Assembly (NCBI GenBank): GCA_964634935.1
Contig: CAZWJT010000001.1
Coordinates: 16,203-80,202 of the forward strand
Length of the DNA stretch: 64,000 nucleotides
Direction: 5' to 3'
Source of the DNA: an uncultured Planctomycetia bacterium
Lineage (GTDB): Bacteria > Omnitrophota > Gorgyraeia > Duberdicusellales > Duberdicusellaceae
Shown here: piece after piece, positions 19,361 through 45,218 of the stretch
Layout: the number at the start of each line of letters is the position of its first letter
Numbering within the stretch: position 1 is the stretch's first letter
The notes under the pieces: generated by a model
The model's database searches: none
What the model was told of the DNA's origin: nothing
What the model saw: the letters and a program-made list of their open reading frames with translations, nothing else
Position numbers and translations under genes: made by a program

Positions 19361-21598
19361 TCAAGTTTTTCGGAGAGAAACCAACTCGGTAACAATATTC
19401 CCAACCCAACGATAGATGTTGTTTGCAGAAACAATTTTTCTCATATTCTCCATACGTTTCTTTTTTTCTGGATCAGGCATTTCAACTGCGATTTTTATTG
19501 ACTCTGCAAACTCTTCAATTGCATACGGGTTAAATTGAACTGCATCCGTAAGTTCTCGAGCAGCACCAGTAAACTGGCTTAGAATGAGACTGCCGGATAA
19601 ATCGCTCTTACTTGCAACGTATTCCTTGGCAACCAGATTCATCCCATCATGTAGGGAACTGACAATGCAAAAATCGGCTAATTTATAAAAAGGCATAATT
19701 TCTTCGGCCGAGAAATGTTTTTTAAGATATACGATGGGCTTCCAATCTCCATCCATGTGTTTCCAGTTTTTCTTCTCCACAAGCTCATCAACTTCGGCGA
19801 TAAGATCGTGGTATCGTTTTATGTGCACACGACTTGGGGCAGCCATCTGGATGAAAGTCACTTTCTTCTTATAGTGAGGGTATTTTTCAAAGAATCTGTC
19901 AAGAGCTAAAATTCGCTCAATCAGCCCTTTTGTGTAATCAATTCTGTCTACTCCGATGCCGATGATCCTGCCTTCTAAATCAAATTCACTCTTGATCTTT
20001 GCGATCTGCCGCTCTAGAGGAGAATTATCACATGCTACGGGCATATCCTCTTTCACGCTGATCGGAAAAGCCTTAATAAATGTTTCTTTCTGTGAACGAA
20101 CGACGCTGAATTTCTCCGTGTCTACTCTTGACTCAAGAAGCCGATTTACAGTATCCAAAAAATTATTACAATGATTTTGTACATGAAAACCGATCAAATC
20201 ACACCCGAGCATTCCATCAAGCACTTCTTTCTGATATGGGCATATTGCGAATGATTCTGGGGTAGGCCACGGTATATGCCAAAACAAAGCGATAATCGCA
20301 TCCGGCCTTCTCTCCTTAATCATCTTTCCCAACAGGGTAAAGTGGTAATCCTGAATGAATACAAAAGGGGCAGTCGCAGGCAACTCAGCTATGATACTAT
20401 CAGCAAACTTTTGGTTTACTTGCTTATACATAATCCAATCAGATTCTCGAAAAATAGGGCGGGTATGCGTATTATGACAAAGAGGCCAGAGCCCCTCATT
20501 AGAAAACCCATAATAGTAACCGTCTTCTTCTTCTTTAGTAAGCCAAATCCGCTTAAGAATATACCTGTTGTCTTCCGGAGGAACCCCAAGCTTATCTTTC
20601 GAATTAACGAATTTTTTATCCGCGTTTCCAGCGCCATGCGCAATCCATGTGCCGCCACAAGCGCATAAAATCGGATGAATGGCAGTAACAACGCCACTCG
20701 CCGGTTGTATGCAACGAGCTATCCCTGTTTCCTCGTCAGTAACGTGCATATAGGGCTCACGGTTAGAGACGACAAATAACGAATTCTCTCCTAACTTTGC
20801 TCGCACAAGATCTCTGAGCTTTGCCTCGGTCCAAGCTTCGTCTTTTTGGAGACGCTCTGAAGCTTCTTCCGAGACTGTTCGGCGTGCGATACGTAAACTC
20901 AAAGCAACCTGTTCTACTTCACTTGCCAGCTTCCCAAACTCTCCGTGTTCTTTGATAGGATGCAATTCGTCCGTCTCTCCCTTTTGAAAGTGCGAAAACC
21001 ATACCGTCAATCGTTCAACCGGCAAGGAAAAAATCTGCCTGTGAAGAAAAATCGCTACGATGAAAATAGCAATAACAAGAATGACAAGTGTTACACTGAT
21101 TCTTCGCCAAATCTCAATGAGTCGAGCAAACACATAGGAGGTGTCATGGATAACCTCAACAAGACCAAGAAGCAAGCCCTCTTCATTAACAATCGGCAAC
21201 AAATAACTATATACCGTATAATCCTTAAATTTTTCAAGCTCTCCCCGAGGGATCTGGGTGGACAAAACATCCGGGAGATACGGTTTTTCTTTTTCTTTCC
21301 AATCACTGAATCTTTTCGTGATCGCAATAATTTCTCCTGAAGCATTATACAAAACACAACCTTGCAACCTCTCCCGTGTTTCAAACTTCTCAACTAAATA
21401 ATTAGCATGCCGCATGTTCTTAGCAGTAAAAACCCCCTGGGCCGAAAGCTCCATGCTCTCAGCTATATGTTTTGACTTTCTCTTCAAATCATCAAGAAGC
21501 CTCTCTTCTTCAAAATGAACCTGAAAGTAACCAAACAACGTAAACGCTGCTGTTACAACAATGAGGATTGGAAGAATAAAAAGTAAAACGCGTTTCAT
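19361..21598 (-). CDS. otsA: fusion protein: N-terminal 2-TM periplasmic sensor + HAMP-like linker, C-terminal trehalose-6-phosphate synthase (GT20)
   Basis: Residues ~250-745 carry SLFVVSNREPY, WPLCH, WIQDYHF, GIGVDRIDYTKGL and SLHDGMNLVAKEY (OtsA). Residues 1-250 have TM1 (LLFILPILIVVTAAF), a ~140-aa extracytoplasmic domain, TM2 (VTLVILVIAIFIVAIFL) and an amphipathic linker. Confidence 0.85.
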   Translation of the reverse strand: MKRVLLFILPILIVVTAAFTLFGYFQVHFEEERLLDDLKRKSKHIAESMELSAQGVFTAKNMRHANYLVEKFETRERLQGCVLYNASGEIIAITKRFSDWKEKEKPYLPDVLSTQIPRGELEKFKDYTVYSYLLPIVNEEGLLLGLVEVIHDTSYVFARLIEIWRRISVTLVILVIAIFIVAIFLHRQIFSLPVERLTVWFSHFQKGETDELHPIKEHGEFGKLASEVEQVALSLRIARRTVSEEASERLQKDEAWTEAKLRDLVRAKLGENSLFVVSNREPYMHVTDEETGIARCIQPASGVVTAIHPILCACGGTWIAHGAGNADKKFVNSKDKLGVPPEDNRYILKRIWLTKEEEDGYYYGFSNEGLWPLCHNTHTRPIFRESDWIMYKQVNQKFADSIIAELPATAPFVFIQDYHFTLLGKMIKERRPDAIIALFWHIPWPTPESFAICPYQKEVLDGMLGCDLIGFHVQNHCNNFLDTVNRLLESRVDTEKFSVVRSQKETFIKAFPISVKEDMPVACDNSPLERQIAKIKSEFDLEGRIIGIGVDRIDYTKGLIERILALDRFFEKYPHYKKKVTFIQMAAPSRVHIKRYHDLIAEVDELVEKKNWKHMDGDWKPIVYLKKHFSAEEIMPFYKLADFCIVSSLHDGMNLVAKEYVASKSDLSGSLILSQFTGAARELTDAVQFNPYAIEEFAESIKIAVEMPDPEKKKRMENMRKIVSANNIYRWVGNIVTELVSLRKT

Positions 21599-22677
21599 GA
21601 GAAATTCTTCTCCTGGTTGTAGTTCATTGCCCGAATAGGATAAGGAATAACGATCCCCTCTTTTTTATAACGGCTATGGAGCGCTTTAATAAATTCATGC
21701 TTGACAAGATGCTGATCGACAAATTCTTGAACTCGCAAAATAACTGTAAAATTAATGCTAAAATCACCGAAAGTGTGATAGCGGATAAAGGGGTCGAAAT
21801 CTGGAATGCCTCCCGGGACGATCCGCATAATATCCTTGGCTACCTCACGCGTAATGTGTTCTACTTTCACCAAATCACTTTGGTAATGTACTCCAATATT
21901 TACCAAAACAGCAAGCTCCTTATCTGGTAAATAATAATTCGTAATTATCGATTTGGTCAGTTTTTCGTTCGGCACGAGTATGGCATTATTTGGAAGCATC
22001 CGTATTTTAGTAGTACGCCAGGTTATATCCATCACATACCCCTCTTCTCCTGTTTCGAGTTTAATATAATCGCCGATTTTTACTTGCCGTGCTATGATAA
22101 TATAAAATCCAGAAAAGATATTAGAGAGGGTATCTTGTAACGCCAAAGCAACCGCTAAACTCCCTATGCCCAAAGTAGCCAAAAGCGGAGCAATAGAAAG
22201 CCCCAGGCTGTTCAAAATAATGAGTATTCCTATAGCGAAAATAACCGTCCGACTAATATTTTGGGTGAGCGAGGTTATCGGAAGGGTGGTTTGGATCTTG
22301 TGAGAATACACCCGAATCACACGCGTTGAAATATGCCCCAAAACCAGCATAACCGAAACAACTCCGAGAATAAAAATTGCCTTCTCTACGCCCACAATAA
22401 TCTCTCCTGGAAAACGAGAAATTGCAAGCCCAAAATACGCACCAAGCATAATAAACCAAAGAAGAAAAGGACCCCTTACTGCTTCAATAATAATGTCATC
22501 AATCTGAGACTTGGTGTGCTGAGACCATTGAACCAATCTCTGAAATAAAAATCTCCGTGTACTATACCCGCAAAGGAGTGTAACCAGAAAAACAAGCAAT
22601 GGATTGACAATAAGAACCAGATTTTGCGTAACATACTCCCAAAACATATTCCTCCTGCTCTTAAAATAAAAAGCCAC
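21595..22677 (-). CDS. MscS-family mechanosensitive channel
   Basis: 360 aa, 4-5 TM. Pore helix GIGSLAVALALQDTLSNIFSGFYII, then a beta-domain (VKIGDYIKLETGEEGYVMDITWRTT). Confidence 0.8.
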   Translation of the reverse strand: MAFYFKSRRNMFWEYVTQNLVLIVNPLLVFLVTLLCGYSTRRFLFQRLVQWSQHTKSQIDDIIIEAVRGPFLLWFIMLGAYFGLAISRFPGEIIVGVEKAIFILGVVSVMLVLGHISTRVIRVYSHKIQTTLPITSLTQNISRTVIFAIGILIILNSLGLSIAPLLATLGIGSLAVALALQDTLSNIFSGFYIIIARQVKIGDYIKLETGEEGYVMDITWRTTKIRMLPNNAILVPNEKLTKSIITNYYLPDKELAVLVNIGVHYQSDLVKVEHITREVAKDIMRIVPGGIPDFDPFIRYHTFGDFSINFTVILRVQEFVDQHLVKHEFIKALHSRYKKEGIVIPYPIRAMNYNQEKNFS

Positions 22678-22902
22678 CTTGCGTTATTAAGCAAGATGGC
22701 GGCCCGACCATCAAAAAACCTCCAGGAGAATTATTCCTGGACCCAAATCTTTTTTACTTTACTATTTCGTTCTGTCGCTGAGTCTTATTTTCTGATCGCT
22801 TCTTGCATATCGTTCAGCGCTTGGATGTAGGTTGTTGAATGTAAATATAAGTTTATTATATACAAAAAAAACTTTTCGGCAAGGATGAATTCAGCGAGAA
22901 AC

Positions 22903-26204: not shown

Positions 26205-27773
26205 TCAACCTCTCAGATGGTCCTGTGCTTTTTTAAGTCGATGAGAAAATATTCCCTTTTTAAATTCTGAATTCCAGCCTTTCATAATGAGCCAACCCCC
26301 AAAACGAATGAGATTATTACGCCATGGCCGATACCACCGTTTCCATCCCATATTAAGGTTGTGCAAAAAGAAAACAAGCGACGGGAAAGAAAATATTTGC
26401 AACCCTATCATAAACATATACTTAAACTGATAGAATTTTCCCATAATTTTCCGGATGGAATGTTGCAATCTTTCGGGCGTTAAAGGTTGATCCGGCTCAA
26501 AAGTAGGAAAATTACCATCATAATACTCCCAACCAATATCCTGACTTGGATAGATTCTATTTTGCACCTGCAATCTCTGCCTTAACTCTGTTCCAGGCAA
26601 AGGTACAGGCAAAAGCACCTGTATAGTGTCTATCTGGGCACGCTTAATAAAAATTCTGTACGTTTCGATGCGCTCACGCAAGGACATCGTAAAAGAAAGA
26701 TTTTCCCGGAGCGGGTAACCAAAAATAAACATTCCATGGACCAAAAATCCAAAACGGTGGTAAATCTTAGCAAGATCGATCATTTCCTGAGGTTTTATTT
26801 GTTTTTTCATCGCGGATAACTCTTCTTCAATGGGAGATTCAAATCCAATGGCAACCGTCGTAATTCCTGCTTGACGCATGGCGGCGAGTAATTCCCCGTC
26901 CTTAGCCTTATCTAAACGTATTTGCACAGTGATATCCAAACGTTTGCCTATGTTTCTTTGATAATCCCTGAGCATAGCGCAAAACCGCATAGTTTCATTA
27001 CGGTATTGCCCAAAAAGATCGTCAACAATAAAAAAATGCCGAGCATCCAGTGTTTCCAAAGGATAGCGAATATCCTCAAGCAAACGTTCGGGAGAAGCTG
27101 ACCTTGGCTTCCCTTTCACGGTACAAAACTCACAATCCATGCCACAGCCTCGAATCCGGCCTACGGGATATAGCGTAATCTTCGCGTAACGCACGAGGGA
27201 AAAATCCGGTGAAGGCAAAACATCAAAATCAGTAATCGGCTCACGAGGTTCAGTCATAATACATTTATCGTTTTCTAAATAAGCAATGCCTTTGACTCGG
27301 CTTAAATCCTGATTATTCCGAAGCGAGGTCAGAATCTCTTTTATGGTCAATTCGCCTTCGCCAATAACCAAATAATCAATTGAAGATCGCAAGGCTTCAT
27401 CGATATTTTCCTGGACAAAATGCTGTCCGCCAGCAATCGTTATAGTTCCCATTGATTTATAAAATCGTGCGATTTCATAGAGCCGCGGAATCGTACTGGT
27501 TAACCCCCCGTACAAACCAACAATATCTGCTGGCCTCTCCCGCTGGAGAAACGCGTGATCAACCCCGCCAGATTGAGTTTTCGGGCCATACCGGCGGAAA
27601 TTATTCTCATCGATAACTTCTACATCCCACCCTTCAATTTCGTTGACCATGCTCGCGATACATACAGGTCCTAAAGCGGTGGTTCTGCGGGCAATGCTCG
27701 AGTAAATATTAAAAGTCGGATAAGCTGGAATTACAATCCTTAGTCTATGTCTTTTTTTATTTGAATCAAGCAT
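26205..27773 (-). CDS. B12-binding-domain radical SAM protein (class B) with hydrophobic DUF4070-like C-terminus
   Basis: N-terminal Rossmann-like B12-binding region (DYLVIGEGE), then radical SAM CGMDCEFC (CxxxCxxC) and a C-terminal amphipathic/hydrophobic tail. Confidence 0.75.
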   Translation of the reverse strand: MLDSNKKRHRLRIVIPAYPTFNIYSSIARRTTALGPVCIASMVNEIEGWDVEVIDENNFRRYGPKTQSGGVDHAFLQRERPADIVGLYGGLTSTIPRLYEIARFYKSMGTITIAGGQHFVQENIDEALRSSIDYLVIGEGELTIKEILTSLRNNQDLSRVKGIAYLENDKCIMTEPREPITDFDVLPSPDFSLVRYAKITLYPVGRIRGCGMDCEFCTVKGKPRSASPERLLEDIRYPLETLDARHFFIVDDLFGQYRNETMRFCAMLRDYQRNIGKRLDITVQIRLDKAKDGELLAAMRQAGITTVAIGFESPIEEELSAMKKQIKPQEMIDLAKIYHRFGFLVHGMFIFGYPLRENLSFTMSLRERIETYRIFIKRAQIDTIQVLLPVPLPGTELRQRLQVQNRIYPSQDIGWEYYDGNFPTFEPDQPLTPERLQHSIRKIMGKFYQFKYMFMIGLQIFSFPSLVFFLHNLNMGWKRWYRPWRNNLIRFGGWLIMKGWNSEFKKGIFSHRLKKAQDHLRG

Positions 27774-31968: not shown

Positions 31969-34065
31969 CTATCTTCTGTGTAAAATCATCTTAATCCGCG
32001 CCAGCAACTTGTCAGAATCAAAGGGTTTGATAATATAGTCATCCGCGCCTTGCGCAAAACCCTCAAGCTCACTTGACTTATCCTGCCGAGCAGTCAGCAT
32101 AATTACCGGAATCACTGCTGTTTCTAAACGCGATCGCAAATGGCGCAACATCTCGAAACCGTTCATCTTCGGCATAGTAACATCACTAATAATCAAATCC
32201 GGCTTGGCCCGATGCGCAAGCTCTAGAGCTTCGCTTCCGTCGCGGGCGACAATCACTTGATACCCAAAGCTCTGCAATCGGGCTTCGAGAATCCTTAAAA
32301 TATCCTCTTCATCATCGGCGATAAGAATTTTTATTTTTTGTCCGGTATCCCGGGAAAACTTATCGATTCTATCCTCTTCTCTCACTCCAATAACCCGAAT
32401 AAGCTCATCGAGGGTGCTCATTCCGGATGCAACTTTGTCCATCCCGGAATAGATAAGGGGCTTGAGACCGTTGTTTTGGGCGGCGAGGAAAATCTGTTCT
32501 TCAGGAACTTCTTCGGCAATTAGTCTACGGATAGAATCATTGATTGCCATCATCTCAAAAATAGCTGTTCTCCCCATATATCCAGTAAAATTGCATCGCG
32601 GACATCCTTTGCCATGGAAAAATTTAGTAATCCGCAACTCTTCTATGTGTTTTCGAAAATCAGCAATTAAATTTTGCGGAGGAACATATTCTTCCCGACA
32701 ATCAGAACAAATCACTTTTATAAGCCTCTGTGCCACTATCAGGACAACCGACGAAGCAATACTATACGCTTCAACACCTAAATCTCTCAGGCGCGTTACC
32801 GAAGAAACAGAATTATTTGTGTGCATTGTCGAAAGAACCAGATGTCCGGTAAGTGAAGATTGGAATGCGATTTCCGCTGTCTCTTGGTCTCGGATTTCGC
32901 CTACGAGAATAATATTAGGATCCTGTCGTAAAATACTCCTCAATCCGGTAGCAAAGGTGACATTCTTCTGAGGATTTACCTGCATTTGGTTAACCCCCGC
33001 GATAAGATACTCAATCGGATCTTCAATGGTGACGATGTTTTTTGTCTCGTGCTTTATATAATTTAAAGCGGCGTAAAGCGTGCTGGTTTTCCCTGAACCA
33101 GTAGGCCCAGTTACTAAAATCATTCCCTGGGGTTTCCGAATGGCACTCTGAAAAATATGCGAATCAGAAGAACTTAAGCCTATTTTGGCTAAATCGATCT
33201 TTGCCTCTTGAAGATCAAGGAGTCGCATCTCAACTTTTTCTCCGAAAAAAGTTGGAATAACCGAAACACGCAGATCAATCTTCCTGCCATATACAAGAAT
33301 TTTGCTTCGCCCGTCTTGTGGCTTGCGCGTCTCAGCAATATCAAGCTCGGAAAGAATCTTGAGACGAGAAACAATGAACGGATGGAGGGCGGCGGGAATC
33401 CGCATAACATTTTGGAGATCTCCGTCTACCCGATAACGCACGATTACCTCGGATTCTTGCACTTCGACATGAATATCACTTGCCCGGGCTTTCACGGCAT
33501 CGGTAATAATAAGGGTACAAAGACGAACTACCGGAGCGTCTGAATCTTCAATAAGCTGAACAGCGCCGCTGGATGTGAATTTTTTAATCGGCTCAAGAGA
33601 TGTTTGATCGACAATATTCTTTAAAATATCATACACCGTTTCATCTGAATGATAGTGCTGCTCAAGAAAAACCTTAATCACACTTTTTGAACAGAGAATT
33701 GGCTGAATATCCTTTTTCGCAATAACCGCAAGGTCATCCCGCGCGATAACATCTTGAGGATCACTCATCGCAAGAACAAGTGCATTTCTTTCAATCCGAA
33801 CAGGAAACACGCCATATCGTTTTGCCAGTTCATAGGGAACAAGCTTAACAACTTCAGGATCAAACGACTCAGCGGAAAGATCGCATATGGGCATATGGAA
33901 AACTTCCGCGGCTACTTCAACCACCACTTCTTCCTTGATAAAACCCATATCAATAAGCACTTCGTGCAAAGGAATTTTTGCTCCCTGCTGTTTTGATCTG
34001 GCATCATTGATTTGCTCTTGAGTCACCAGTTCTTTTTCCAATAATGCGGTTACGAGTAGTGACAT
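31969..34065 (-). CDS. GspE/PilB-family secretion ATPase fused to a C-terminal CheY-like receiver domain
   Basis: T2SSE_N-like N-domain. Walker A GPTGSGKTST and tetracysteine (CSDC...CPRC). C-terminal ILIADDEEDI...DLIISDVTMPKMNGFE...K receiver domain with the phospho-acceptor Asp. Confidence 0.8.
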   Translation of the reverse strand: MSLLVTALLEKELVTQEQINDARSKQQGAKIPLHEVLIDMGFIKEEVVVEVAAEVFHMPICDLSAESFDPEVVKLVPYELAKRYGVFPVRIERNALVLAMSDPQDVIARDDLAVIAKKDIQPILCSKSVIKVFLEQHYHSDETVYDILKNIVDQTSLEPIKKFTSSGAVQLIEDSDAPVVRLCTLIITDAVKARASDIHVEVQESEVIVRYRVDGDLQNVMRIPAALHPFIVSRLKILSELDIAETRKPQDGRSKILVYGRKIDLRVSVIPTFFGEKVEMRLLDLQEAKIDLAKIGLSSSDSHIFQSAIRKPQGMILVTGPTGSGKTSTLYAALNYIKHETKNIVTIEDPIEYLIAGVNQMQVNPQKNVTFATGLRSILRQDPNIILVGEIRDQETAEIAFQSSLTGHLVLSTMHTNNSVSSVTRLRDLGVEAYSIASSVVLIVAQRLIKVICSDCREEYVPPQNLIADFRKHIEELRITKFFHGKGCPRCNFTGYMGRTAIFEMMAINDSIRRLIAEEVPEEQIFLAAQNNGLKPLIYSGMDKVASGMSTLDELIRVIGVREEDRIDKFSRDTGQKIKILIADDEEDILRILEARLQSFGYQVIVARDGSEALELAHRAKPDLIISDVTMPKMNGFEMLRHLRSRLETAVIPVIMLTARQDKSSELEGFAQGADDYIIKPFDSDKLLARIKMILHRR

Positions 34066-34112: not shown

Positions 34113-35600
34113 TTACAGGTTTTTTGTGCATCTGCAATCATCTTGTTTTTGCCTTTTGGGTATATTTTGTTTATCTTGAGAATACATCTTATCGCGCATA
34201 CCGGAGGAATTACCCAACCAACAATAGAGACATAAATTTTCCCTGGGAAGCCCGATAGCAGACACCATATCTTCTATGGTCTGAAAACGCAATGTGGTAA
34301 CCCCTAAATCTTTCGTAATCCAAGAAACCATCTGCTGGTATTTCTCAGAGTGAGGACTCAAGTAATCGGACACATCGTCAATGTCGTGTCCCTCAAGAGC
34401 ACGAATTGCACGGCGGGCGGCAAGCTCATGAATGCTCCGGGTAGAAAGACAAAATTTGCAGGGAAACAGCAACGGTGGACACGCAGGTCGAACATGGATT
34501 TCCCGGGCGCCGTTCTCCCACAATTTATTTGTAGTAAAATTTTTGAGTTGGGTTCCACGCACTATTGAATCTTCACAAACAACAATCCGCTGCCCGGCAA
34601 TAATTTCCCGGATAGGAACAAGCTTCATACGGGCTATCAAATCTCTCGTTTCTTGTGACGGAGGCGTATAACTTCTCCCGTATCCCGGCGTATACTTGAC
34701 GAGCGGCCGACGATGCGGAATTCCGGATTCCATGGAATAACCAATAGCATGCGCTGTCCCCGAATCAGGAATCCCGCAAACAAGATCCGCCTGCATATCA
34801 ATGTCTTTCTTCGCCAAAAACCTTCCACATCGCTCCCGAACTGTTTCCACGGTAATCCCTTCATAGCTTGAGGCTGGAAAACCAGTATAAATCCAAAGAA
34901 AAGAACAAATTTGTTTTTTACTCATTCCTGAAACTTTAGAAACTATGCCGGTTTCATTCAATAAAACGATCTCCCCGGGATCAAGATATTTAACTATAGT
35001 AAAACCGAGGTTTGGAAACGCGCTGGTCTCTGTGGCAATAGCCCAATCGTTATCTTTTTGTGCGATAACCAGTGGCGTATAACCAAACCTATCCCGAGCA
35101 GCATAAATTCCGTCTTTATGCAGAATAAGCAACGAACAAGAACCCTCAATAAGATCAAACATCCGCTCAATTCCGTTTTCTAGTGTTACCCCTTCAAGAA
35201 TAAGTTTTCCAATAAGCTCAGTAACATTCACTCCGCTTTTTCCTACCTCGCTGAACGAAACACCCCCCTGAAGTAAACGTTCCGCCAGAATTTCTTTATT
35301 TTCCAAAAGTCCCGCGGTAACAATACAAAAGGAACCAAATTTTGAATGTAGATAAATGGGTTGCTCGTTGCTATCACTAATAACCCCGATTCCCTTATTC
35401 CCATGCATATGCTTATAATCTTCGAAGAATTTAGACTTAAACTGGCTCTGGCTGATATTATGAATATGCCGGCTGAGTTTTTCTCCTAGAATAGCAAGTC
35501 CTCCATATTCTGTCCCAAGGTGCGAATGATAATCTGTTCCATAAAATAAAAATTGTGCGCAATCTCCTTGGGCGCAAACTGTTCCAAAAATTCCACTCAT
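34113..35600 (-). CDS. amidophosphoribosyltransferase (PurF)-like protein with Ser in place of the N-terminal nucleophile Cys
   Basis: Ntn-type glutamine amidotransferase domain (MSGIFG..., GIGVISD) plus a type-I PRTase motif VVCEDSIVRGTQL. Codon 2 is AGT (Ser), where PurF has TGT (Cys1). Confidence 0.7.
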   Translation of the reverse strand: MSGIFGTVCAQGDCAQFLFYGTDYHSHLGTEYGGLAILGEKLSRHIHNISQSQFKSKFFEDYKHMHGNKGIGVISDSNEQPIYLHSKFGSFCIVTAGLLENKEILAERLLQGGVSFSEVGKSGVNVTELIGKLILEGVTLENGIERMFDLIEGSCSLLILHKDGIYAARDRFGYTPLVIAQKDNDWAIATETSAFPNLGFTIVKYLDPGEIVLLNETGIVSKVSGMSKKQICSFLWIYTGFPASSYEGITVETVRERCGRFLAKKDIDMQADLVCGIPDSGTAHAIGYSMESGIPHRRPLVKYTPGYGRSYTPPSQETRDLIARMKLVPIREIIAGQRIVVCEDSIVRGTQLKNFTTNKLWENGAREIHVRPACPPLLFPCKFCLSTRSIHELAARRAIRALEGHDIDDVSDYLSPHSEKYQQMVSWITKDLGVTTLRFQTIEDMVSAIGLPRENLCLYCWLGNSSGMRDKMYSQDKQNIPKRQKQDDCRCTKNL

Positions 35601-35654
35601 AGCATATCCTCCCGATGTTATCAGCCTGTACCGAAAATTCGCCTCAGAAAAAAA

Positions 35655-37535
35655 TCAATTCTTCTCAACCGGAGAAAAATTTCCTTCATCCTGCGGCTTT
35701 ACTCCCATTATTTCTTTTGGCCTAGTAATTTGAAAAACCTTATTGAAGTCGGAAAATAATTGCATGTACTCAAGATCAACCGGGTTATTTTTTGCCGTAG
35801 TTCCTTTAACTTTTACCACCGTTTTCACGATAGTTTTCGATGCTTTATCAATCCAAATAAACAGAGAGAAAGAGATATTATCTTCGCTCTGTTTCTGGTA
35901 AAAATCAAGCAGTTGTTTTGGCTTGTATTCTAAAACCGCGTATCGGCTTCCTGAACAATAGATTTCTCCGGGGTCAGGGCTATTCTCTTCCATAAGCTTC
36001 AGGTATTTTTCGATAGTAAGAAAATTGTTTGTTTTATTCCGATCCCAGGTTTGACTTGTATTTTCCGGCTCCTCAAACCACATGCCAATCTCAAAATAGT
36101 GCTTCTTTTCAATACTCATCCACCGGTCAGCAACCCCATGCTCATGATCCTGCTGCATCACTGAAAATCTATCCGGGGTTTCATACTGGATATCCCACTC
36201 GATACCCTTGTATTGTTTCGATTGTAACTTCTCGTTGGTAAAATCAAACATATACAATCTGCTCCCATATGAACTTGCCGCGCGGACAGCCGCGATGGTT
36301 TCTTTGACCAAATTCGTAAGAGCAACCGCTTCTTGAATCTTTTCGAGCTTATTGATTTCCAGAACTTCAAGCCTCGCATAATCTAGCTCCCGCTCAAGAA
36401 GAGCAGCCGATTCACTGCCGAGCGACCGTAAAGAATCGATCTCCAAAGATGCTCCCTGAAAATCTCGGTTCCTCAGGTGAATCATTCCAAGGGAATAATG
36501 CGCAAAAGCATCATTGGGATTCTCTAAAATAAGCTGTTTCAAGCGGTATGCCGCCTCTGAAATATTATAATCAGAAAGGTATTTCATAATCACCATTCTC
36601 AAAAGCTCTATTCTGGCAGAACCTTTCTGCCGTGCAATTTCTTCTAGACAAATCTCAAAAACCCTGGGATGTTGGCGACAATTACTGTCTAAAGACCAGC
36701 TGGCAGACCATTTAGTTACAAGATATAAAAATTCCTGATCAGTTAAACGGAGCGCATCCCGAATCGCGTGAAAAGCCTCTGGATCTTTCTTTGAGTACCG
36801 CAAGGACTTTGCCAAAATAATATCTAAATCGTCCCTTGTTGTAATTTCCTGTTTCTTGAGGTCAGAGGCAATTTGTAAACGGGTATTCAAAAGCTGTATG
36901 ATTTTCTCTTTTTCTTGAGACGCAGCCTGGCTCCTCAAGTATTCGGTTAATTTAGAACGAACCCTATCCGGCCAATTCAGCACACTAATAATTTTCTGAA
37001 CCGCTCCAGCGTCCCCGGAAACCATAAATTCAGCCCACAAGAAATCAAGATCCTCCGCAGTCTGTGCTTCCCGTAAGAGCGGGTTAAATTTCATTGGAAA
37101 ATCCTGAGCAAGAAAACTTTGAATAATTTCGCGCTCTTGAGAAAAATCGGTATCCTGAACTTTGCTCAAAAGGAAGTCTTGCACTTCTTTCGTCGCACAA
37201 AATTGGAAAACCTGAAGAAGAAAAATTCTTCCCTTGGATGACGCAGTCGCAAAAAGCTCCAGGTAACTGGAAAGTATCTCGGGAGAAAACTGAGCAATCC
37301 GCCCAAATGAATAAGCAGTGCTGTTTAAATTCTTTTGCTGGGTAGCGTTTAAACCATTAAAGAATGAAGAAGAAATAAACTCTTTCAGTGCTTGCGGAAC
37401 TTTTTCTGGAAGGGGGTGGACATAGTAATAAGTGAGAATGTCTCCTACCTTGTTTTTCGGATCCTCTTGAGCATACATCATGCTTACCCCAATCCAGAAA
37501 AGAAAAAACATAGAAAGAATTTTCATCCCGCGCAT
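35655..37535 (-). CDS. hypothetical exported protein with TPR-like segment
   Basis: Signal peptide MRGMKILSMFFLFWIGVSMMYAQ. 626 aa. One TPR-like stretch (AYRLKQLILENPNDAFAHYSLGMIHL). Confidence 0.45.
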   Translation of the reverse strand: MRGMKILSMFFLFWIGVSMMYAQEDPKNKVGDILTYYYVHPLPEKVPQALKEFISSSFFNGLNATQQKNLNSTAYSFGRIAQFSPEILSSYLELFATASSKGRIFLLQVFQFCATKEVQDFLLSKVQDTDFSQEREIIQSFLAQDFPMKFNPLLREAQTAEDLDFLWAEFMVSGDAGAVQKIISVLNWPDRVRSKLTEYLRSQAASQEKEKIIQLLNTRLQIASDLKKQEITTRDDLDIILAKSLRYSKKDPEAFHAIRDALRLTDQEFLYLVTKWSASWSLDSNCRQHPRVFEICLEEIARQKGSARIELLRMVIMKYLSDYNISEAAYRLKQLILENPNDAFAHYSLGMIHLRNRDFQGASLEIDSLRSLGSESAALLERELDYARLEVLEINKLEKIQEAVALTNLVKETIAAVRAASSYGSRLYMFDFTNEKLQSKQYKGIEWDIQYETPDRFSVMQQDHEHGVADRWMSIEKKHYFEIGMWFEEPENTSQTWDRNKTNNFLTIEKYLKLMEENSPDPGEIYCSGSRYAVLEYKPKQLLDFYQKQSEDNISFSLFIWIDKASKTIVKTVVKVKGTTAKNNPVDLEYMQLFSDFNKVFQITRPKEIMGVKPQDEGNFSPVEKN

Positions 37536-37565: not shown

Positions 37566-38198
37566 CTACTCGTATAACAGGTTGTCAATTTGAACACGCT
37601 TCACATAAATAATCTCACAAGAACCCATCCCTGTGTCTGATCTACTTAAACTCGTATTCCACCATACTGGATTTTCCCCTTGAAATCCTTTAATGTTAAC
37701 AAGATAGCCCTCGATTCGCATCTTCTGGTTAATGCGCGCAGCACACATCGCCCGATACACGCTTTCATTAGCAGGAATTGTATGGTTATTAGAAGAATGA
37801 GTAATGATATCTTCATTCTGGAAAGGACTCTCTGGGGTATATTGCCAATAATACCATCGATTATTCTGCCAATAGCGGACGAAACGCTTGGCTTCCGACT
37901 CAGCCAGCTTCCCCCAAACAAAAGCAACATCAAACGGAGCTAAACATGCTTCCCAGCTCGAAGAGTACTTTTTTTTGCCCACTACTACGCCAGAAAGAGC
38001 ATAGCGCGCAACTGGCAGAATTTGAAATTCTTCCGTTCCGCATCGAACAGTCAATGTTTCACCGTCAAACGGTTCTTGACAAGGATCCTCGTAGATATCA
38101 ATGATTTGGGAAACTTCTTCTTTTCCCTTATGATTACCACACCCAGAAACTATCAAACCAATGGAACAGAACCCCAGAAAAACAACCAGACTTTTCAT
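37566..38198 (-). CDS. hypothetical lipoprotein
   Basis: Signal peptide with lipobox LIVSGC. 210 aa, Trp/Tyr-rich. Confidence 0.45.
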   Translation of the reverse strand: MKSLVVFLGFCSIGLIVSGCGNHKGKEEVSQIIDIYEDPCQEPFDGETLTVRCGTEEFQILPVARYALSGVVVGKKKYSSSWEACLAPFDVAFVWGKLAESEAKRFVRYWQNNRWYYWQYTPESPFQNEDIITHSSNNHTIPANESVYRAMCAARINQKMRIEGYLVNIKGFQGENPVWWNTSLSRSDTGMGSCEIIYVKRVQIDNLLYE

Positions 38199-38907: not shown

Positions 38908-39927
38908 TCATCGAATATTCCCATTCAAAACGGCTTCTTCCTGGTATTTTCTTAGAAATGGTTCCTCGCATGAATACGAGTTAAAGCATGCTTCAGCCGC
39001 AGCTTTGCATCCGCCGAAACAGCGAAGTCGTAATTTGCATAAACGACAGAATGGAGGAAAAACAGCGACAAAATCCCGTGCAGCCTTTTTCGCGATAATA
39101 TGCTCAAATGACTCAGTATCAATATTACCAAGGATCATCCCGCTATGATTGCACATGCGCACATTACCAAGCGGATCAATCGTGTAATACGCGTTTTCGG
39201 TTCCGGCAGAACAAAATCCAAAGTGAAGCTTCTGGAATTTTCCTAGATTTATTAGGCAGGGCTGAATAGGAATTGAACATGAAATTGGAAAATTATATCG
39301 CATACTAAAAGCGTCTGCTTGCGCAAGAACCAAATCTATCTGGGAAGGTGTCGGAAGCAGCTCTTCGCAATGAAAAACCCCTTCACCGCCGGGATTAAAA
39401 CGGTTAAGCATTAAACTATCCGCACCCAAAGCAAAAGCCAGCTTCGCGGTACCCTCAAAATCCTCAATATTCTTACGGGTTGCAACAAACACAACGACTA
39501 CTCGCGCATGATATTGTTTTAAAGTTACCAGCGTACGGGTAATCTCGTCGAAAGCATCATATCGCATAAGAGCGTTATGAACTGCACGATGACAGCTCAA
39601 TAACGGCAACTCAAAGGTAACGAACTTGGAACAATTTCTTGCCGCTTGCTGAGAGATAAGAGTTCCATTCGTAATGATATTAATCAGAACAGCCTGATCT
39701 TTTAAAAAATGAACTATTTCTTCAAGATCATCACGAAGAAATGGTTCTCCGCCAGTAAGCGTTATAACCGAGGCTTTCGTCTCAGAAAGAATCTTTGCCA
39801 ATAAATCCTTGGTTTTTGCGGTATCAAGTTCTCCCCGCGGGTAGCTAGGATTGCGTTTCCATACGTTATAACAATAAACACAAGAACTGTTACAGCGCTG
39901 GGTAATCTCAAAAATAATATTCCTTAT
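38908..39927 (-). CDS. radical SAM / SPASM-domain maturase; no canonical start codon
   Basis: The in-frame translation upstream of the track ORF gives ...IRNIIFEITQRCNSSCVYCYN (CxxxCxxC), then GGEPFL, and a C-terminal auxiliary-cluster Cys array (CRLCKLRLRCFGGCKAAAEAC). There is no ATG, GTG or TTG between the upstream in-frame TGA and the Cys motif. The only candidates are ATA at 39925-39927 (5 nt after AAGGAGGG) or ATT. The 5' boundary is uncertain. Confidence 0.6.
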   Translation of the reverse strand: MRNIIFEITQRCNSSCVYCYNVWKRNPSYPRGELDTAKTKDLLAKILSETKASVITLTGGEPFLRDDLEEIVHFLKDQAVLINIITNGTLISQQAARNCSKFVTFELPLLSCHRAVHNALMRYDAFDEITRTLVTLKQYHARVVVVFVATRKNIEDFEGTAKLAFALGADSLMLNRFNPGGEGVFHCEELLPTPSQIDLVLAQADAFSMRYNFPISCSIPIQPCLINLGKFQKLHFGFCSAGTENAYYTIDPLGNVRMCNHSGMILGNIDTESFEHIIAKKAARDFVAVFPPFCRLCKLRLRCFGGCKAAAEACFNSYSCEEPFLRKYQEEAVLNGNIR

Positions 39928-39940
39928 GGCTCCCTCCTTC

Positions 39941-41380
39941 TTATTGATTCATTGCTACGATAAAAGAAAGTGCTTCAATCATTTCTGGCCGCACGGGAAA
40001 ATCATCTCGTATCTCTGCTGAATCATATTCCTGGTTTATAAAATAACTCAAAAGTTTCTGCTCTTCTTTTTGATAAAGTTCCCAATTTTTCCCGGATGCT
40101 TTTTTCCAGGCTCCTTCGATGCAAAGCACCATTTCCATATCTTTTGCCAGATTCTTCTCAGCTTGGGCGAGAACTCCCCGTTCAACGATACCCTGCCCTT
40201 GCAACGTTCGAAGCTCTTTTAATCGCGCCTCAATATCGTCACGTAACTTTTGCTGTTTAAATCCCAACACTGTTGGCTCGTAACACGTAATTGCGCTCGT
40301 TGAACGCAAGCGGTGAAAGACACGGTCCTTATAAATACCAACGAGCAGCTCAGCCGTTGAAACGCTGATAATCTTTCTCGCCGTGAACACCGAAAGAAGA
40401 TTACGAAGCTCTTCCTCTTCGCGGGCAAGCGTTGCTGGTATATTTGATGAACGGAAATCCGCTAATCCATTAAACTCATGAACCGAATTCCATTTTTTCT
40501 TCAACACAGCCCACTCAGAAAACGCAGAATAATCTTGGTTTTGGAAATCATTCTCGGACGTATGCCTTTTCGCAACATTCGGAGCAGCCAAAGAATAGAA
40601 ATCAATTATATAGTTGACAGCCTCTTGGACAGAAGGACTGACCACAAGCTCAAAACTCACTTTTCCTTCAGCAAAAAGAAGCGCCAACGCCTCCTCTTCC
40701 TGAAAATCATACTGATGGGTTTGCTGTGTTTTCGCAAAAAGAGCTTCAGCGCGCTTGAGATATTCGATATCGCGACCCAAGGTTTCTTTGGAAGCCCGAA
40801 TAATACTTTCTTCAACATACCCACGGGCCGCAATCTCACCAAGCATTTGGCATCGCTTTTCTAAATTCTCTCGTACAGACCAAACTGAACTACCCAAAGT
40901 AGTCGGTTTATAACAGGTTTCTCCCGATTGCGAGCGCAACCGATGAAAAATCATCTCACCATAAATCATTTCCAGAACAATGGCAACATCTTTTCGAATC
41001 AACCCTTTATCAACAAGAGCAGAAAAATTTCTGGCGAGAATCTGCTTTTTTGTAGCGATAACATCCCGATAATCCGCAGCAGCAGCAACCGCCTCTTTTG
41101 TAAGATCAAGCCACTGCGAGCGAATAGCCAGCCATTCGGAAGTATTTTTCAAATCAGGGGTCTTGGAAAATAAACAATCTTCATTGTTCTTTGCTTGTGC
41201 ATAAGCAAAAGATTGTTGTTGCGAAAAGATAGCAAGAAACGAGGAAAGTGCGATGAAAAATTGCCGACTTAAAAAAGTATTTCCTTTCAGATGAAAAATG
41301 GGTTTTTTTCTCGTGCAGATATAGTAAAGAGCAACAAAAAACGCAAACACGCTCAGCGTAAAAACAGCTATCTTATGCAT
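39941..41380 (-). CDS. hypothetical exported protein with an internal ~190-aa tandem duplication
   Basis: Repeat 1 contains SEWLAIRSQW ... IYGEMIFHRLRSQSGETCYKPTTLG. Repeat 2 contains SEWAVLKKKW ... IYKDRVFHRLRSTSAITCYEPTVLG. N-terminal TM or signal segments. Confidence 0.45.
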   Translation of the reverse strand: MHKIAVFTLSVFAFFVALYYICTRKKPIFHLKGNTFLSRQFFIALSSFLAIFSQQQSFAYAQAKNNEDCLFSKTPDLKNTSEWLAIRSQWLDLTKEAVAAAADYRDVIATKKQILARNFSALVDKGLIRKDVAIVLEMIYGEMIFHRLRSQSGETCYKPTTLGSSVWSVRENLEKRCQMLGEIAARGYVEESIIRASKETLGRDIEYLKRAEALFAKTQQTHQYDFQEEEALALLFAEGKVSFELVVSPSVQEAVNYIIDFYSLAAPNVAKRHTSENDFQNQDYSAFSEWAVLKKKWNSVHEFNGLADFRSSNIPATLAREEEELRNLLSVFTARKIISVSTAELLVGIYKDRVFHRLRSTSAITCYEPTVLGFKQQKLRDDIEARLKELRTLQGQGIVERGVLAQAEKNLAKDMEMVLCIEGAWKKASGKNWELYQKEEQKLLSYFINQEYDSAEIRDDFPVRPEMIEALSFIVAMNQ

Positions 41381-41635: not shown

Positions 41636-42853
41636 CTAATTTTCATGGTTTATACCGCAACTTGCACGGAAAATTGCCTGCCTGCCAAGTTTGCTTCGGA
41701 TTTTTTCAACCGCCCGGTGTAAATTTTCTCTACGCTTCTCTTCCTGCCAAAAAATAGTCTCGCTCTCTTTTTGACCGCTTAAACGGGAAATCTTAATCCC
41801 GAGAAGCCTAATCATTCCCGCTTGGTCTATGTGTTGGAAAAGAGCGACTGCGTGACGAAACAATATGTCAACAAAGTTTGTGGAAAAAGCTAACGTCACG
41901 GATTTTGTTGTCGTGGTGAAATCTGAGAACCGCACCTTTACTACCAGTGTTCTTCCAACAATCTGTTCATGCCTCAATCTCTCAGAAACATCCTCACAAA
42001 GAGAAAATAGTGTTTTCCTGAGAAGATCGCCATCTCGGGTATCGCGTTCGAAGGTAACCTCGGAACTTATCGATTTTGTCGTAGCATTCTCCTCAACCTG
42101 GTGTGCATCTCTGCCCCAAGCAAGTTCAAAGAAATAATTTCCGTTCTTTCCAAACAATCTCTGCAAAACCTTTAAATCATACCGTGCGAGAGCTCCAATC
42201 GTAGCGACACCCATCCGACGAAGAACTTCTTCTGTTTTCTTACCCAAACCGCACAACTTGGTTACCGGGAGAGGCCACAAAAATTTAAGCAGATCTTGGG
42301 GAACAACCTCGACTAATCCATCTGGCTTCTGAAGATCAGAAGCTATTTTTGCCGCCATTTTTGTTGGTGCAATTCCTAAAGAAGCAGTAAGACCAAGTTT
42401 TTTCAAGATACATTCTTTTAAACTTCTTGCGGCATGAAGACTGGATGCGTATCGATGCATCGTACTCGTCATGTCTAAAAATGCTTCATCGATACTCACG
42501 ACCTCATGCACGGGGGTAAAAGCATCAAAAATCTGATACAATTGACGGGAAACCTGTTGGTAGCGTTCCATACGGACCGGAACGAATACCGCCTGAGGGC
42601 ATAACTTATACGCAATAGATATGGGCATCGCGGAATGTATTCCAAAGGCGCGCGCCTGGTAAGAACAAGTAGAAACTACTCCTCGCCCCCGCCCTCCCTT
42701 GGGGTCGGCGCCAACAATGAGAGGACGGTCACGATAGCTAGGGTTATCTTTCTGCTCTACAGAAGCAAAGAAAGCATCCATGTCTACATGAAAAATTACC
42801 GAAAAATGTTCAACAGACACGCTTTTATTCAATCTAAGCAACCAGTCCATCAA
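41636..42853 (-). CDS. dinB: DNA polymerase IV (Y-family)
   Basis: IFHVDMDAFFASVE catalytic block, SIDEAFLD, and a little-finger domain. 405 aa. Confidence 0.85.
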   Translation of the reverse strand: MMDWLLRLNKSVSVEHFSVIFHVDMDAFFASVEQKDNPSYRDRPLIVGADPKGGRGRGVVSTCSYQARAFGIHSAMPISIAYKLCPQAVFVPVRMERYQQVSRQLYQIFDAFTPVHEVVSIDEAFLDMTSTMHRYASSLHAARSLKECILKKLGLTASLGIAPTKMAAKIASDLQKPDGLVEVVPQDLLKFLWPLPVTKLCGLGKKTEEVLRRMGVATIGALARYDLKVLQRLFGKNGNYFFELAWGRDAHQVEENATTKSISSEVTFERDTRDGDLLRKTLFSLCEDVSERLRHEQIVGRTLVVKVRFSDFTTTTKSVTLAFSTNFVDILFRHAVALFQHIDQAGMIRLLGIKISRLSGQKESETIFWQEEKRRENLHRAVEKIRSKLGRQAIFRASCGINHEN

Positions 42854-45218
42854 CCACTCTTACAGCTTCGACGCAATCTTTCGCATATTCTGCGCCGATG
42901 CTTTGAGCATACCTTTGCGTCACGACTGCTCCGCCAACCACAAAAAAACAATCGATACCTTCTTTCCGAGCCGCTTGAATTACTTCATCCATCTTCACCA
43001 TTGTCGTTGTCATGAGAGCCGAGAGTCCGACGACCTTTGGTTTATGCTGCTTTATTGCCTTGATAATTGTGCCTGTTGAAACATCCTTTCCTAAATCCAC
43101 CACCTCAAAACCATGATTCTTAAGCATCAAGGAAACTAAATTTTTTCCAATATCATGAATATCACCTTCAACGGTAGCTAAAATAACAACGGCTTTGTAG
43201 GCATTTCCCGCATGCTCACGACGCAGTAAAGGATTTAAATGCTCTAATGCTTTCTTTACCACTTCAGCGCTTGCAATAAGCTGAGGAAGAAAATATTCTT
43301 TCCGGTCAAACAAATGACCGACATTTGTGATAGCCGGAATTACAACCGTGTTAACCAAAGCAATGGCCGAGATACCCTCTGCCAAAGCCTGCTTCACAAA
43401 CTTCAAAATTTCTTCCTTATTCCCCTGGCAGATCGCGGAAAAAATTTGATCATGAGAAGAAGTTTTTCCCGACTGAATGTGTTTTGTTCCGTCTTTCTTA
43501 AAATGAACAACATACCTCTGAGCGTGAGTGTCCCGTCCAAGCAAAAGTTCGGCGGCCTTCTTGGTGCAAACAAGTTCTTCGCTCAAAGGATCAGCGATGA
43601 CCGCTGAAAGACCCTTCTGAACCGCCATAGAAAGAAAAGAAGAATTGACCCAAGCGCGCCCAGGCAATCCAAATGAAATATTTGAAAGACCAATCACTGT
43701 ATGTGCTTTCAGTTTTTGCGTGCACCATTCGATAGTCTCTAGCGCTTCAGAAGCAGCATCTGCGCATGACGCAACACTCAAAGCCAAAGCATCAATGAAA
43801 ATATCGTCTGTAGTAAAACCGTGTTTCCGGGCAACCTCCAATACCTTTTCGATAACGTCCTTACGTTGATTGAAGGTTTCCGGAATTTTCTTCCCAGCCA
43901 CCGGCAAAAGAATAAACATAGCTCCGTACCGCCTTGCTAAAGACAAAAACCTGTTTAACTTCGATTTTTCCCCTGAAATTGAATTAATCAACGCTCTCCC
44001 TGGATAAATACGCAAGGCTTGTTCCAGGGCTTCAAAATTCGTTGTGTCCAAAACCAAAGGCAATGGACTGATTACCGATAATAAGCGGACGGCAGAAATT
44101 AAACTCTTCTCCTCAGATATCCCAGCCGCCCCCACATTAACATCCAGCAGATGTGCTCCTTTTTCTCTCTGAGCGTATGCCTGTGTACGTATATAATTTG
44201 TTGAGGAATTCCTCAACTCTGCCTGGAATGCCTTTTTACCAGTTGGATTGATTCGTTCTCCGATAAGTATAATTTCTGGGGTATTTTTGAACAAAAACCC
44301 CTCTCGGGATGAGCTGAGAGCAGAAAGAGAGATGCGTTTATTCTTTACTGGCCTAACGCCTTCTAAATGTTCTTTTAAGGCTGCTATATGTCCAGGAGTC
44401 GTACCACAACACCCTCCAATCATCCGCGCTCCGGATTGAACAATATGTACAGCTTGATGAGCAAAATCTTGCTTATTCATAGTAAATACTGCCTGCCCGT
44501 TGATTAAATGCGGGATATCAGCATTGGGTTTAGCAATGAGAGGCACAAGTGAATAGGGTTGCGCTTGCTGCATACACACAAGCATATCTTCTGGCCCAGT
44601 TGAACAATTACACCCCACAGCATGGGCCCCAAGACTCTGCAGAGTAATCAACGCAGAAAGCATTGTTGTTCCGTTTAAAGTACGGCCGTTCTTCTCGTAG
44701 GTCATCGTAACACAGGTGAATTTTTTCGTGAGTTCCTGTGCTGCAAGAAGTGCTGCTCGAGCTTCCTGGATATCGATCATCGTCTCAATCACCAAAAGAT
44801 CCACTCCGCCCGCAAGCAAACCTTCAATCTGTTCACGAAAAACCAGAACTGCCTCTTCAAACGGAAAGTCTCCGAACGGTTCAACAAATCTTCCGGTAGG
44901 ACCGATATCTCCCGCGACGAGACACCTGCCGTTGGCAGATTTACGTGCAAGCAGTGCTAAATTACGGTTAACAGCCTTAACGTCTTTACGGGAAAAATGA
45001 TCCAACTTACAACGGTTAGCGCCAAACGTGCAAGTATAAAGCACATCAGACCCAGCTCGAACATACGCATCATGAATGGTTTGAAGCACCTTGGGGTTTT
45101 CCAAACACCACAGTTCCGGACAAACTCCGGAGCGCATACCGTGTTTCTGCAACTCAGTTCCCATAGCACCATCAAGAAGAACAACTCGTTTTTGAAGAAG
45201 CTCTTGAATTTTTTCCAT
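42834..45218 (-). CDS. metH: cobalamin-dependent methionine synthase, short form (Hcy-binding, pterin-binding, B12 cap and B12-binding domains; no activation domain)
   Basis: N-terminal homocysteine S-methyltransferase domain (LLDGAMGTEL), GCCGTTP zinc site, pterin-binding barrel, and DIHDIGKNLV (DxHxxG cobalamin motif). Only 794 aa. Confidence 0.9.
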   Translation of the reverse strand: MEKIQELLQKRVVLLDGAMGTELQKHGMRSGVCPELWCLENPKVLQTIHDAYVRAGSDVLYTCTFGANRCKLDHFSRKDVKAVNRNLALLARKSANGRCLVAGDIGPTGRFVEPFGDFPFEEAVLVFREQIEGLLAGGVDLLVIETMIDIQEARAALLAAQELTKKFTCVTMTYEKNGRTLNGTTMLSALITLQSLGAHAVGCNCSTGPEDMLVCMQQAQPYSLVPLIAKPNADIPHLINGQAVFTMNKQDFAHQAVHIVQSGARMIGGCCGTTPGHIAALKEHLEGVRPVKNKRISLSALSSSREGFLFKNTPEIILIGERINPTGKKAFQAELRNSSTNYIRTQAYAQREKGAHLLDVNVGAAGISEEKSLISAVRLLSVISPLPLVLDTTNFEALEQALRIYPGRALINSISGEKSKLNRFLSLARRYGAMFILLPVAGKKIPETFNQRKDVIEKVLEVARKHGFTTDDIFIDALALSVASCADAASEALETIEWCTQKLKAHTVIGLSNISFGLPGRAWVNSSFLSMAVQKGLSAVIADPLSEELVCTKKAAELLLGRDTHAQRYVVHFKKDGTKHIQSGKTSSHDQIFSAICQGNKEEILKFVKQALAEGISAIALVNTVVIPAITNVGHLFDRKEYFLPQLIASAEVVKKALEHLNPLLRREHAGNAYKAVVILATVEGDIHDIGKNLVSLMLKNHGFEVVDLGKDVSTGTIIKAIKQHKPKVVGLSALMTTTMVKMDEVIQAARKEGIDCFFVVGGAVVTQRYAQSIGAEYAKDCVEAVRVVDGLVA

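Follow-up and report, generated by a model that had tools for sequence, protein, structure and literature searches.

A PurF-like protein with serine in place of the catalytic cysteine belongs to a large clade predicted to lack glutaminase activity

PurF homologs that lack the N-terminal catalytic Cys have been described before. Brown et al. (2011, Biol Direct 6:63, PMC3261824) reported PurF′ of Crenarchaeota, which carries Ala or Val at this position and is encoded beside purF, and also Mlab_0150, which carries Ser and is a recent duplicate of the local purF. The authors proposed that PurF′ is an ammonia-dependent 5-phosphoribosyl-1-pyrophosphate (PRPP) aminotransferase, a role "that will require experimental testing". 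According to work cited in the same paper, replacing Cys1 of E. coli PurF by Ser or Ala abolished its glutamine-dependent activity and left its NH3-dependent activity (Mei and Zalkin 1989). Here we analyzed a 64-kb stretch of DNA (the window) from an uncultured bacterium assigned to the Omnitrophota, in which a minus-strand gene encodes a PurF-like protein with Ser where PurF has its catalytic Cys. Compared by description only, the window protein shares with PurF′ and Mlab_0150 the loss of the N-terminal Cys and the same ammonia hypothesis. It differs in that PurF′ and Mlab_0150 are encoded beside purF and other pur genes whereas the window gene has no pur neighbors, and in that Mlab_0150 is a recent local duplicate whereas the family described below is ancient and spans phyla. 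Brown et al. was the only relevant paper in our literature search, which returned no characterized bacterial PurF without the Cys and no later biochemical or genetic work. The idea of a Cys-less PurF is already published, and the large conserved clade to which the window gene belongs is itself uncharacterized. We conclude that the gene is a member of a very large, conserved PurF-like clade that is predicted to be glutaminase-dead, which is a less exotic identity than that of an enzyme with a Ser nucleophile.

The gene and its start region have the following features.

34113..35600, minus strand: PurF-like coding sequence, 495 amino acids plus stop, from the list of open reading frames (ORFs)
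35607..35613, minus strand: Shine-Dalgarno-like GGGAGGA, 6 nt 5′ of the ATG, by direct reading of the sequence
35595..35597, minus strand: codon 2, AGT (Ser), which aligns with the catalytic Cys1 of PurF

The ORF opens with ATG AGT GGA ATT TTT GGA, read directly as M-S-G-I-F-G, so the original prediction was right that the second codon is AGT, although it placed this codon one base off, at 35594-35596. Residue 2, where removal of Met or of a propeptide exposes the Cys nucleophile of PurF, is therefore Ser. Between the preceding in-frame TGA and the ATG lies FFSEANFRYRLITSGGYA, in which we found no ATG, GTG or TTG and no Cys codon; an earlier start cannot expose an N-terminal Cys, and the upstream in-frame start that would have undone the original prediction was sought there without success. 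Local GC content is uniform around the gene, at 0.40-0.45. As a set of close homologs we used the best 120 of 8000 database matches, which are 67-75 % identical to the window protein apart from one self-match at 100 %. Ser-Gly follows the start codon in every one of these (119 M-S-G and one V-S-G), conservation is at least 98 % at 166 of the 495 positions, and the named sources are mostly metagenome-assembled genomes (MAGs) of Candidatus Omnitrophota. Ser2 is fixed across more than 150 independent assemblies and within the Omnitrophota/Planctomycetota subclade.

The best match in the PDB by phmmer was B. subtilis PurF (1ao0/1gph, E = 7e-54), with ~30 % identity over residues 3-396, followed by Arabidopsis and other PurF entries (E ~2e-36) and by E. 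coli PurF. An AlphaFold2 model built from a 58-sequence alignment had a mean predicted local distance difference test (pLDDT) score of 87.9. Its sole internal segment of low confidence, residues 306-310, is the flexible loop of the phosphoribosyltransferase (PRTase) domain, where a low score is expected because the loop is mobile. Foldseek aligned the model to 1ao0 with template modeling (TM) scores of 0.80/0.86, and the top matches were all PurF (query-normalized TM 0.77-0.80), with GlmS, GFAT and AsnB at lower ranks matching the N-terminal domain only. The model is thus predicted to have the same two-domain fold as B. subtilis PurF, which bears out the original assignment of the protein as a PurF homolog with an N-terminal nucleophile (Ntn) amidotransferase domain and a PRTase domain. 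Curated families do not include it. The TIGR01134 purF equivalog score was 198.8 bits, short of the 350-bit cut-off; NCBIfam gave only sub-threshold matches to purF, glmS and asnB, and Pfam gave only GATase_7, at residues 74-195.

We sampled the wider family by searching 50 %-identity representatives exhaustively with HMMER and by scanning one genome per GTDB species with the motif [DE]DS[IL]VRGTQ. The scan returned at least 600 genome loci/species in Bacteria and Archaea, mostly uncultured and from anoxic habitats, and the locus-level counts given below use the best 80 of these. The bacteria among the 80 belong to the Omnitrophota, Planctomycetota, Desulfobacterota/Syntrophia, Elusimicrobiota and Verrucomicrobiota/Lentisphaerota, with further members in the Acidobacteriota, Gemmatimonadota, Bacteroidales, Spirochaetes and Clostridia; the archaea include Altiarchaeota, Thermoplasmatota and Asgard lineages, and no Crenarchaeota occur among the 80. 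The clade is marked by a small non-Cys residue 2, Leu at R26, a shortened glutamine loop (GIGVISD..QP) and an RGTQ signature, all of which are present in the window protein; its identity to Omnitrophota members, some of them encoded in pur operons, is 61-75 %. Family members from Omnitrophota and Oscillospiraceae are ~40 % identical to each other and ~30 % identical to the canonical PurF of their own phylum, which argues for an old paralogous clade rather than local degeneration. Canonical Cys-PurF is common in the Omnitrophota, where we found 120 clusters at ≥61 % identity, 115 of them with a C-G-x-x-G start. From these comparisons the Cys-less family appears to be a large, ancient paralogous PurF-like clade. 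The gene had been singled out as an oddity; it belongs instead to a very large family whose members routinely carry the plain annotation 'amidophosphoribosyltransferase'.

To compare active sites, family members were aligned with E. coli PurF (NC_000913.3), B. subtilis PurF and canonical PurFs (27 canonical and 47 family sequences). E. coli numbering is used for C1, R26, R73, Y74, T76, N101, D127, Y258, K326, R332 and D367. The domain concerned and its diagnostic positions are listed here.

34926..35597, minus strand: N-terminal Ntn-fold (class II amidotransferase-like) domain, residues 2-225, without the glutamine-site residues (Pfam, alignment)
C1: invariant or nearly so in canonical PurF (n=27); Ser or Gly in the family
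R26: invariant or nearly so in canonical PurF (n=27); Leu in 42 of 47 family members
R73-Y74-x-T76-x-G78 loop: invariant or nearly so in canonical PurF (n=27); deleted in the family, with GIGVISD..QP for GHVRYxTxG....QP
N101: invariant or nearly so in canonical PurF (n=27); variable in the family (V/A/D/T)
D127: invariant or nearly so in canonical PurF (n=27); variable in the family

In the window protein C1 is replaced by S2, R26 by L28, N101 by A96 and D127 by V126, and the R73/Y74/T76 glutamine loop is deleted, leaving only G102 (G97) of the glutamine-binding and oxyanion residues. Compared with B. subtilis PurF, the window protein therefore lacks Cys1 together with the propeptide, R26, the glutamine loop, N101 and D127. 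Its Ntn-fold domain carries the family motif FYGTDYHSHLGT. Immediately after the called start Met, 39 of the 80 loci have Gly and 32 have Ser, the remaining loci having a called start upstream of or inside the gene; Thr, Ala, Asp and Lys also occur at position 2 among the 50 %-identity representatives. At every locus whose N-terminal motif could be placed, Ser is encoded by AGY and Gly by GGN, each a single step from the Cys codons TGY. Mean pairwise identity in the family is 0.71 for the N-domain and 0.77 for the C-domain, a ratio of 0.92, compared with 0.62 and 0.71, a ratio of 0.87, for canonical PurF of the same phylum. By this measure the dead N-domain is not drifting and is as well conserved as the N-domain of real PurF. 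We conclude that the window protein is predicted to be glutaminase-dead, as had been proposed from its second codon, and that this prediction now extends from Cys1 to the other glutamine-binding and oxyanion residues.

The second half of the protein, where PRPP would bind, presents the opposite picture.

34206..34925, minus strand: type I PRTase domain plus C-terminal helices, residues 226-465 (1ao0 alignment)
34548..34574, minus strand: PRPP-binding loop E343-D-S-I-V-R-G-T-Q351 (alignment)
34644..34697, minus strand: PRTase flexible loop K302...R309-S310...R319 (E. coli K326-R332 onward), with K302, R309, S310 and R319 invariant
34905..34907, minus strand: Cys232, predicted [4Fe-4S] ligand, equivalent to B. 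subtilis C236 (the 'sicsm' Cys of 1ao0, family-invariant)
34458..34460, minus strand: Cys381, predicted [4Fe-4S] ligand, equivalent to B. subtilis C382 (alignment, family-invariant)
34221..34232, minus strand: Cys457-x-x-Cys460, predicted [4Fe-4S] ligands, equivalent to B. subtilis C437/C440 (alignment, family-invariant)

Residues Y238, K302, R309, D344, S345 and R348 are invariant in the family and T350 is nearly so (E. coli Y258, K326, R332, D367, S368, R371 and T373, respectively). The window protein has in common with B. subtilis PurF the PRPP loop, K302 and R309 of the flexible loop and, by alignment, the four Cys of the Fe-S subgroup, so that the cluster itself is predicted. The PRPP loop, DDSIVRGTT in canonical PurF, differs family-wide in its last Thr, which is Gln in 47/47 family members; canonical PurF has Thr there (RGTT) in 26/27. 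This RGTQ signature stands alongside other family-specific changes relative to B. subtilis PurF.

Several sequences are intermediate between this family and canonical PurF. P0170, P0180, P0202, P0236 and P0240 keep Cys1 and LQHRGQ, lack the R73/Y74 loop and N101, and have RGTQ. Of these, P0170, P0180 and P0236 are 36-42 % identical to the window protein, nearer than canonical PurF; they share with it the short glutamine loop (GIGHVSLxExQP), the loss of N101 and RGTQ, and differ from it in having a Cys-Gly N-terminus (behind a short leader in P0170 and P0180), LQHRGQ and Arg26. The three may still have glutaminase activity. Because the intermediates keep Cys1 and yet lack the loop and N101 and carry RGTQ, we suggest that the glutaminase site was remodeled stepwise before the Cys was lost. 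A second apparently Cys-less group (P0213, P0214, P0223, P0226, P0229, P0237, P0251 and P0262) starts with MAG/MSG/MNG...GLS.D and has F-Y-Q-Q-H-L-G-E instead of DYHSHLGT; this may be an independent or a sister loss of Cys1.

We next considered gene context in relatives. The flanking ORFs of the 80 loci were clustered without prior labels, and recurrent clusters were named via Pfam, which gave these neighbors.

CarB: 9/80 loci
canonical PurF: 7/80 loci
PurM: 6/80 loci
DUF1846: 5/80 loci
class I/II aminotransferase: 5/80 loci
PurL: 4/80 loci
PurQ: 3/80 loci
PurB: 3/80 loci
PurE: 3/80 loci

At least one pur gene is tightly linked in 10 of the 80 loci, and the biosynthetic pur genes are co-stranded. 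Canonical PurFs encoded next to a family gene show an LQHRGQES motif and a propeptide that ends in Cys. In gut Oscillospiraceae the operon reads purE-purC-X-purM-purN-purO-purH-purD-purL, where X is the family gene and the only PurF-like gene in the operon; named sources of the abundant human-gut contig relatives are Dysosmobacter, Lawsonibacter and Ruminococcaceae. Downstream of the most divergent member examined (36 % identity) come purN and then purD. The pur operon of Omnitrophota is syntenic across MAGs, as purB-(purC)-purL-LOG-like-purQ-[slot]-purM-purD-purE-Sua5-RpiB-SHMT, and its slot was found in three states.

L095: canonical purF
L017: canonical purF, then the Ser variant
L023 and L024: the Ser variant only, within the ~10 kb flank examined per side

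Identity to the window protein is 65 % for the L023 protein and 62 % for that of L024. The family thus shares an operon slot with B. subtilis-type PurF in several lineages, and gene context, including replacement of purF in situ, connects it with the de novo purine pathway. The three Omnitrophota states, with purF, both genes or the variant alone, amount to a natural replacement series. That the window gene is a paralog, as its discoverer supposed, is plausible, since canonical Cys-PurF is common in the phylum and adjoins the Ser variant in L017; in L023 and L024 the Ser variant stands alone in the slot. We consider the window enzyme to be probably a second isozyme beside a canonical PurF presumed to be encoded elsewhere in the genome.

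Other features of these neighborhoods were also recorded. In two Asgard loci, L038 (10001-12936) and L054 (6658-9602), from Hermodarchaeota and Promethearchaeota MAGs, canonical purF converges on the Cys-less gene across a gap of 12-33 bp. A LOG-like gene (PF03641, 'Lysine_decarbox'/SLOG) lies between purL and the purQ/purF slot in L023 (9203-9940), L024 (4734-5426) and L095 (8571-9227). The CarB gene directly adjoins the Cys-less gene in its nine loci, co-stranded in all but one, and a DUF1846/PF08903 gene adjoins it in five; loci with carB or DUF1846 neighbors are L008 (~8.3-14.7 kb), L010, L013, L047, L082, L043, L068, L069, L076 and L084, and Omnitrophota L008 has the order DUF1846, PurF-like gene, carB with 25-bp gaps. 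D. vulgaris DVU0161, a purF gene next to carB, may be another member of the family. A thiC-purF operon has been reported in Clostridium ragsdalei (PMC6505512); no ThiC cluster occurs among the recurrent neighbors of the 80 family loci, and a thiamine link is not supported.

Because the PRPP and Fe-S sites are intact, the glutamine site is abolished and the fold is conserved, and because the gene is repeatedly placed in the purF slot and replaces purF there, we favor a PurF-step enzyme that does not use glutamine. The ammonia dependence raised by the original prediction is retained as the leading hypothesis on the same grounds, and we lean, by a little more than an even chance, toward the window protein acting as a glutamine-independent, ammonia-dependent phosphoribosylamine synthase, as its residues would allow. 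In the proposed mechanism, Mg-PRPP would bind at E343-D-S-I-V-R-G-T-Q351 and beneath the flexible loop (K302, R309), and a nitrogen nucleophile, most simply free NH3, would attack C1 of PRPP to give 5-phosphoribosylamine and pyrophosphate, the former to be consumed by PurD. The Ntn-fold domain would be unable to hydrolyze glutamine, lacking Cys1, the R26/R73/D127 hold on glutamine and the N101 oxyanion hole, and it would be kept under strong selection presumably as an active-site lid or entry path and as an oligomer interface. The E. coli C1S and C1A mutants, as cited in PMC3261824, serve as a model in that NH3-dependent phosphoribosylamine synthesis remains in the PRTase domain; they differ in that a single laboratory substitution leaves the remainder of their glutamine site intact, whereas in the family evolution has remodeled the site in its entirety, together with the Tyr74 coupling loop. 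More broadly, and with confidence that falls somewhat short of even, we propose that a dedicated glutamine-independent (ammonia-using) Fe-S enzyme carries out the first committed step of purine synthesis, wholly or partly, across many Bacteria and Archaea found mainly in anoxic habitats, including human-gut Oscillospiraceae, and has displaced canonical PurF in situ in some lineages. In a bolder version of this proposal, the remodeled and conserved N-domain would capture or deliver a nitrogen donor other than glutamine.

Several observations weigh against an ammonia-using PurF-step enzyme. Canonical PurF is already able to use NH3, which leaves the advantage of a dedicated enzyme unexplained. 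Searches of the 64-kb window by tblastn with PurF, PurM, PurL, PurQ, PurB, PurE, PurD, PurC, PurN, PurH, PurO and CarB found only the PurF-like ORF itself, so the earlier statement that no other purine genes are nearby holds for the whole window, and pur neighbors were likewise not seen in 70 of the 80 loci. The variant-only purF slots are known from flanks of ~7-10 kb, not from complete genomes. Near the PRPP site and the channel loop the family has fixed differences (T374Q, T333S, V346A, Y329T/G, F259Y/T and E255L), and the YGID motif, including D408, is lost; these changes lie at non-glutaminase positions, and a different nucleophile or product could follow from them. The literature search turned up no family member that had been tested biochemically or genetically.

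One alternative, which we regard as unlikely, is that the protein is a non-catalytic partner, a pseudoenzyme that binds PRPP or purine nucleotides, forms mixed tetramers with canonical PurF or associates with PurD, and regulates or stabilizes the first step without making phosphoribosylamine. The direct junction with canonical purF in seven of the 80 loci, the dead glutaminase, the abundance of canonical PurF in the same phylum and the strong conservation of the N-domain, which in PurF makes subunit contacts, would all suit such a role. The invariance of PRTase catalytic and PRPP residues across phyla would be unusual for a pure scaffold, however, and most loci, the window included, have no purF neighbor. 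Moreover, the purF slot lacks canonical purF within ~7-10 kb flanks in Oscillospiraceae, L023 and L024. A PRTase that uses another nucleophile or nitrogen donor, or makes a ribosyl-phosphate product other than phosphoribosylamine for a purine, thiamine or other pathway, strikes us as rather unlikely. The fixed changes by the PRPP site and flexible loop and the loss of YGID point toward it, as does an N-domain conserved with motifs of its own (FYGTDYHSHLGT, QFKSKF and GIGVISD), and carB and DUF1846 are frequent neighbors, rather than pur genes. That the gene takes the place of purF within conserved pur operons speaks instead for an unchanged product, the gene contexts yield no candidate alternative substrate, and the old glutamine-pocket positions equivalent to N101 and D127 are variable rather than re-fixed.

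The original prediction also allowed that Ser2, exposed after Met removal, takes over from Cys1 as the nucleophile of an Ntn glutaminase that still uses glutamine. Ser is a legitimate nucleophile in other Ntn hydrolases, and its fixation in the Omnitrophota/Planctomycetota subclade is in keeping with such a function. We nevertheless reject Ser as a replacement nucleophile and judge it very improbable, because Gly is equally common at this position, occupying it in about half of the species, with Thr, Ala, Asp and Lys besides, and because the rest of the glutamine site (R26, the R73/Y74/T76 loop, N101 and D127) has been lost; in addition, the C1S mutant of E. coli PurF is inactive with glutamine, as cited in PMC3261824. 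A sequencing or assembly error that turned TGT into AGT, such as the read-level T/A SNP once suspected, is a single base change away, yet along with a wrong start or a decaying pseudogene it can be dismissed as next to impossible, given Ser-Gly in 120/120 nearest homologs from independent assemblies, an upstream stretch with neither start nor Cys codon, an intact ORF with a Shine-Dalgarno sequence, 166/495 positions conserved at 98 % or more and a uniform base composition.

The rest of the window holds genes of other kinds. The PurF-like gene is flanked on one side by the gene for a 626-amino-acid protein without a family match and on the other by one for a PilB/GspE-type ATPase with a fused receiver domain. 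Upstream, ORFs at 35655-37535, 37566-38198 and 39941-41380 (all minus strand) encode 626, 210 and 479 amino acids without a Pfam or NCBIfam match, the first with a hydrophobic, signal-peptide-like N-terminus. Just downstream, 31969-34065 (minus strand) encodes the secretion/pilus ATPase (TIGR02538, 587 bits) with its C-terminal response-regulator receiver domain at residues ~578-697, and PAS and histidine-kinase genes come next. Near the PurF-like gene we found no purine riboswitch or other Rfam element. Farther away, an nhaA-I (Na+-sensing) riboswitch (RF03057) at 22694-22744 (minus strand; 51.9 bits, gathering score 37) lies directly 5′ of genes for an MscS-like mechanosensitive channel and a GT20 (trehalose-6-phosphate synthase-like) protein, with ORFs at 21595-22677 and 19361-21598 (both minus strand), and the set looks like a sodium-controlled osmoprotection unit. 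Genes for a cobalamin-dependent methionine synthase-like protein (MetH domains; 42834-45218), a B12-binding radical SAM protein (26205-27773) and a radical SAM/SPASM protein (38908-39801), all on the minus strand, are consistent with an anaerobic lifestyle.

The public label 'amidophosphoribosyltransferase' leads metabolic reconstructions to treat the first step of purine synthesis as glutamine-dependent. If the family is ammonia-dependent, purine nitrogen entry would bypass glutamine in many anaerobes, among them gut Oscillospiraceae, Omnitrophota, Planctomycetota, Desulfobacterota and Asgard archaea. In that case purine synthesis would track the ammonium supply, and the regulation known for PurF, through Tyr74 glutamine coupling and nucleotide feedback, would differ. 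If the family members are instead non-catalytic partners, a central pathway would have a widespread regulator that is a pseudoenzyme.

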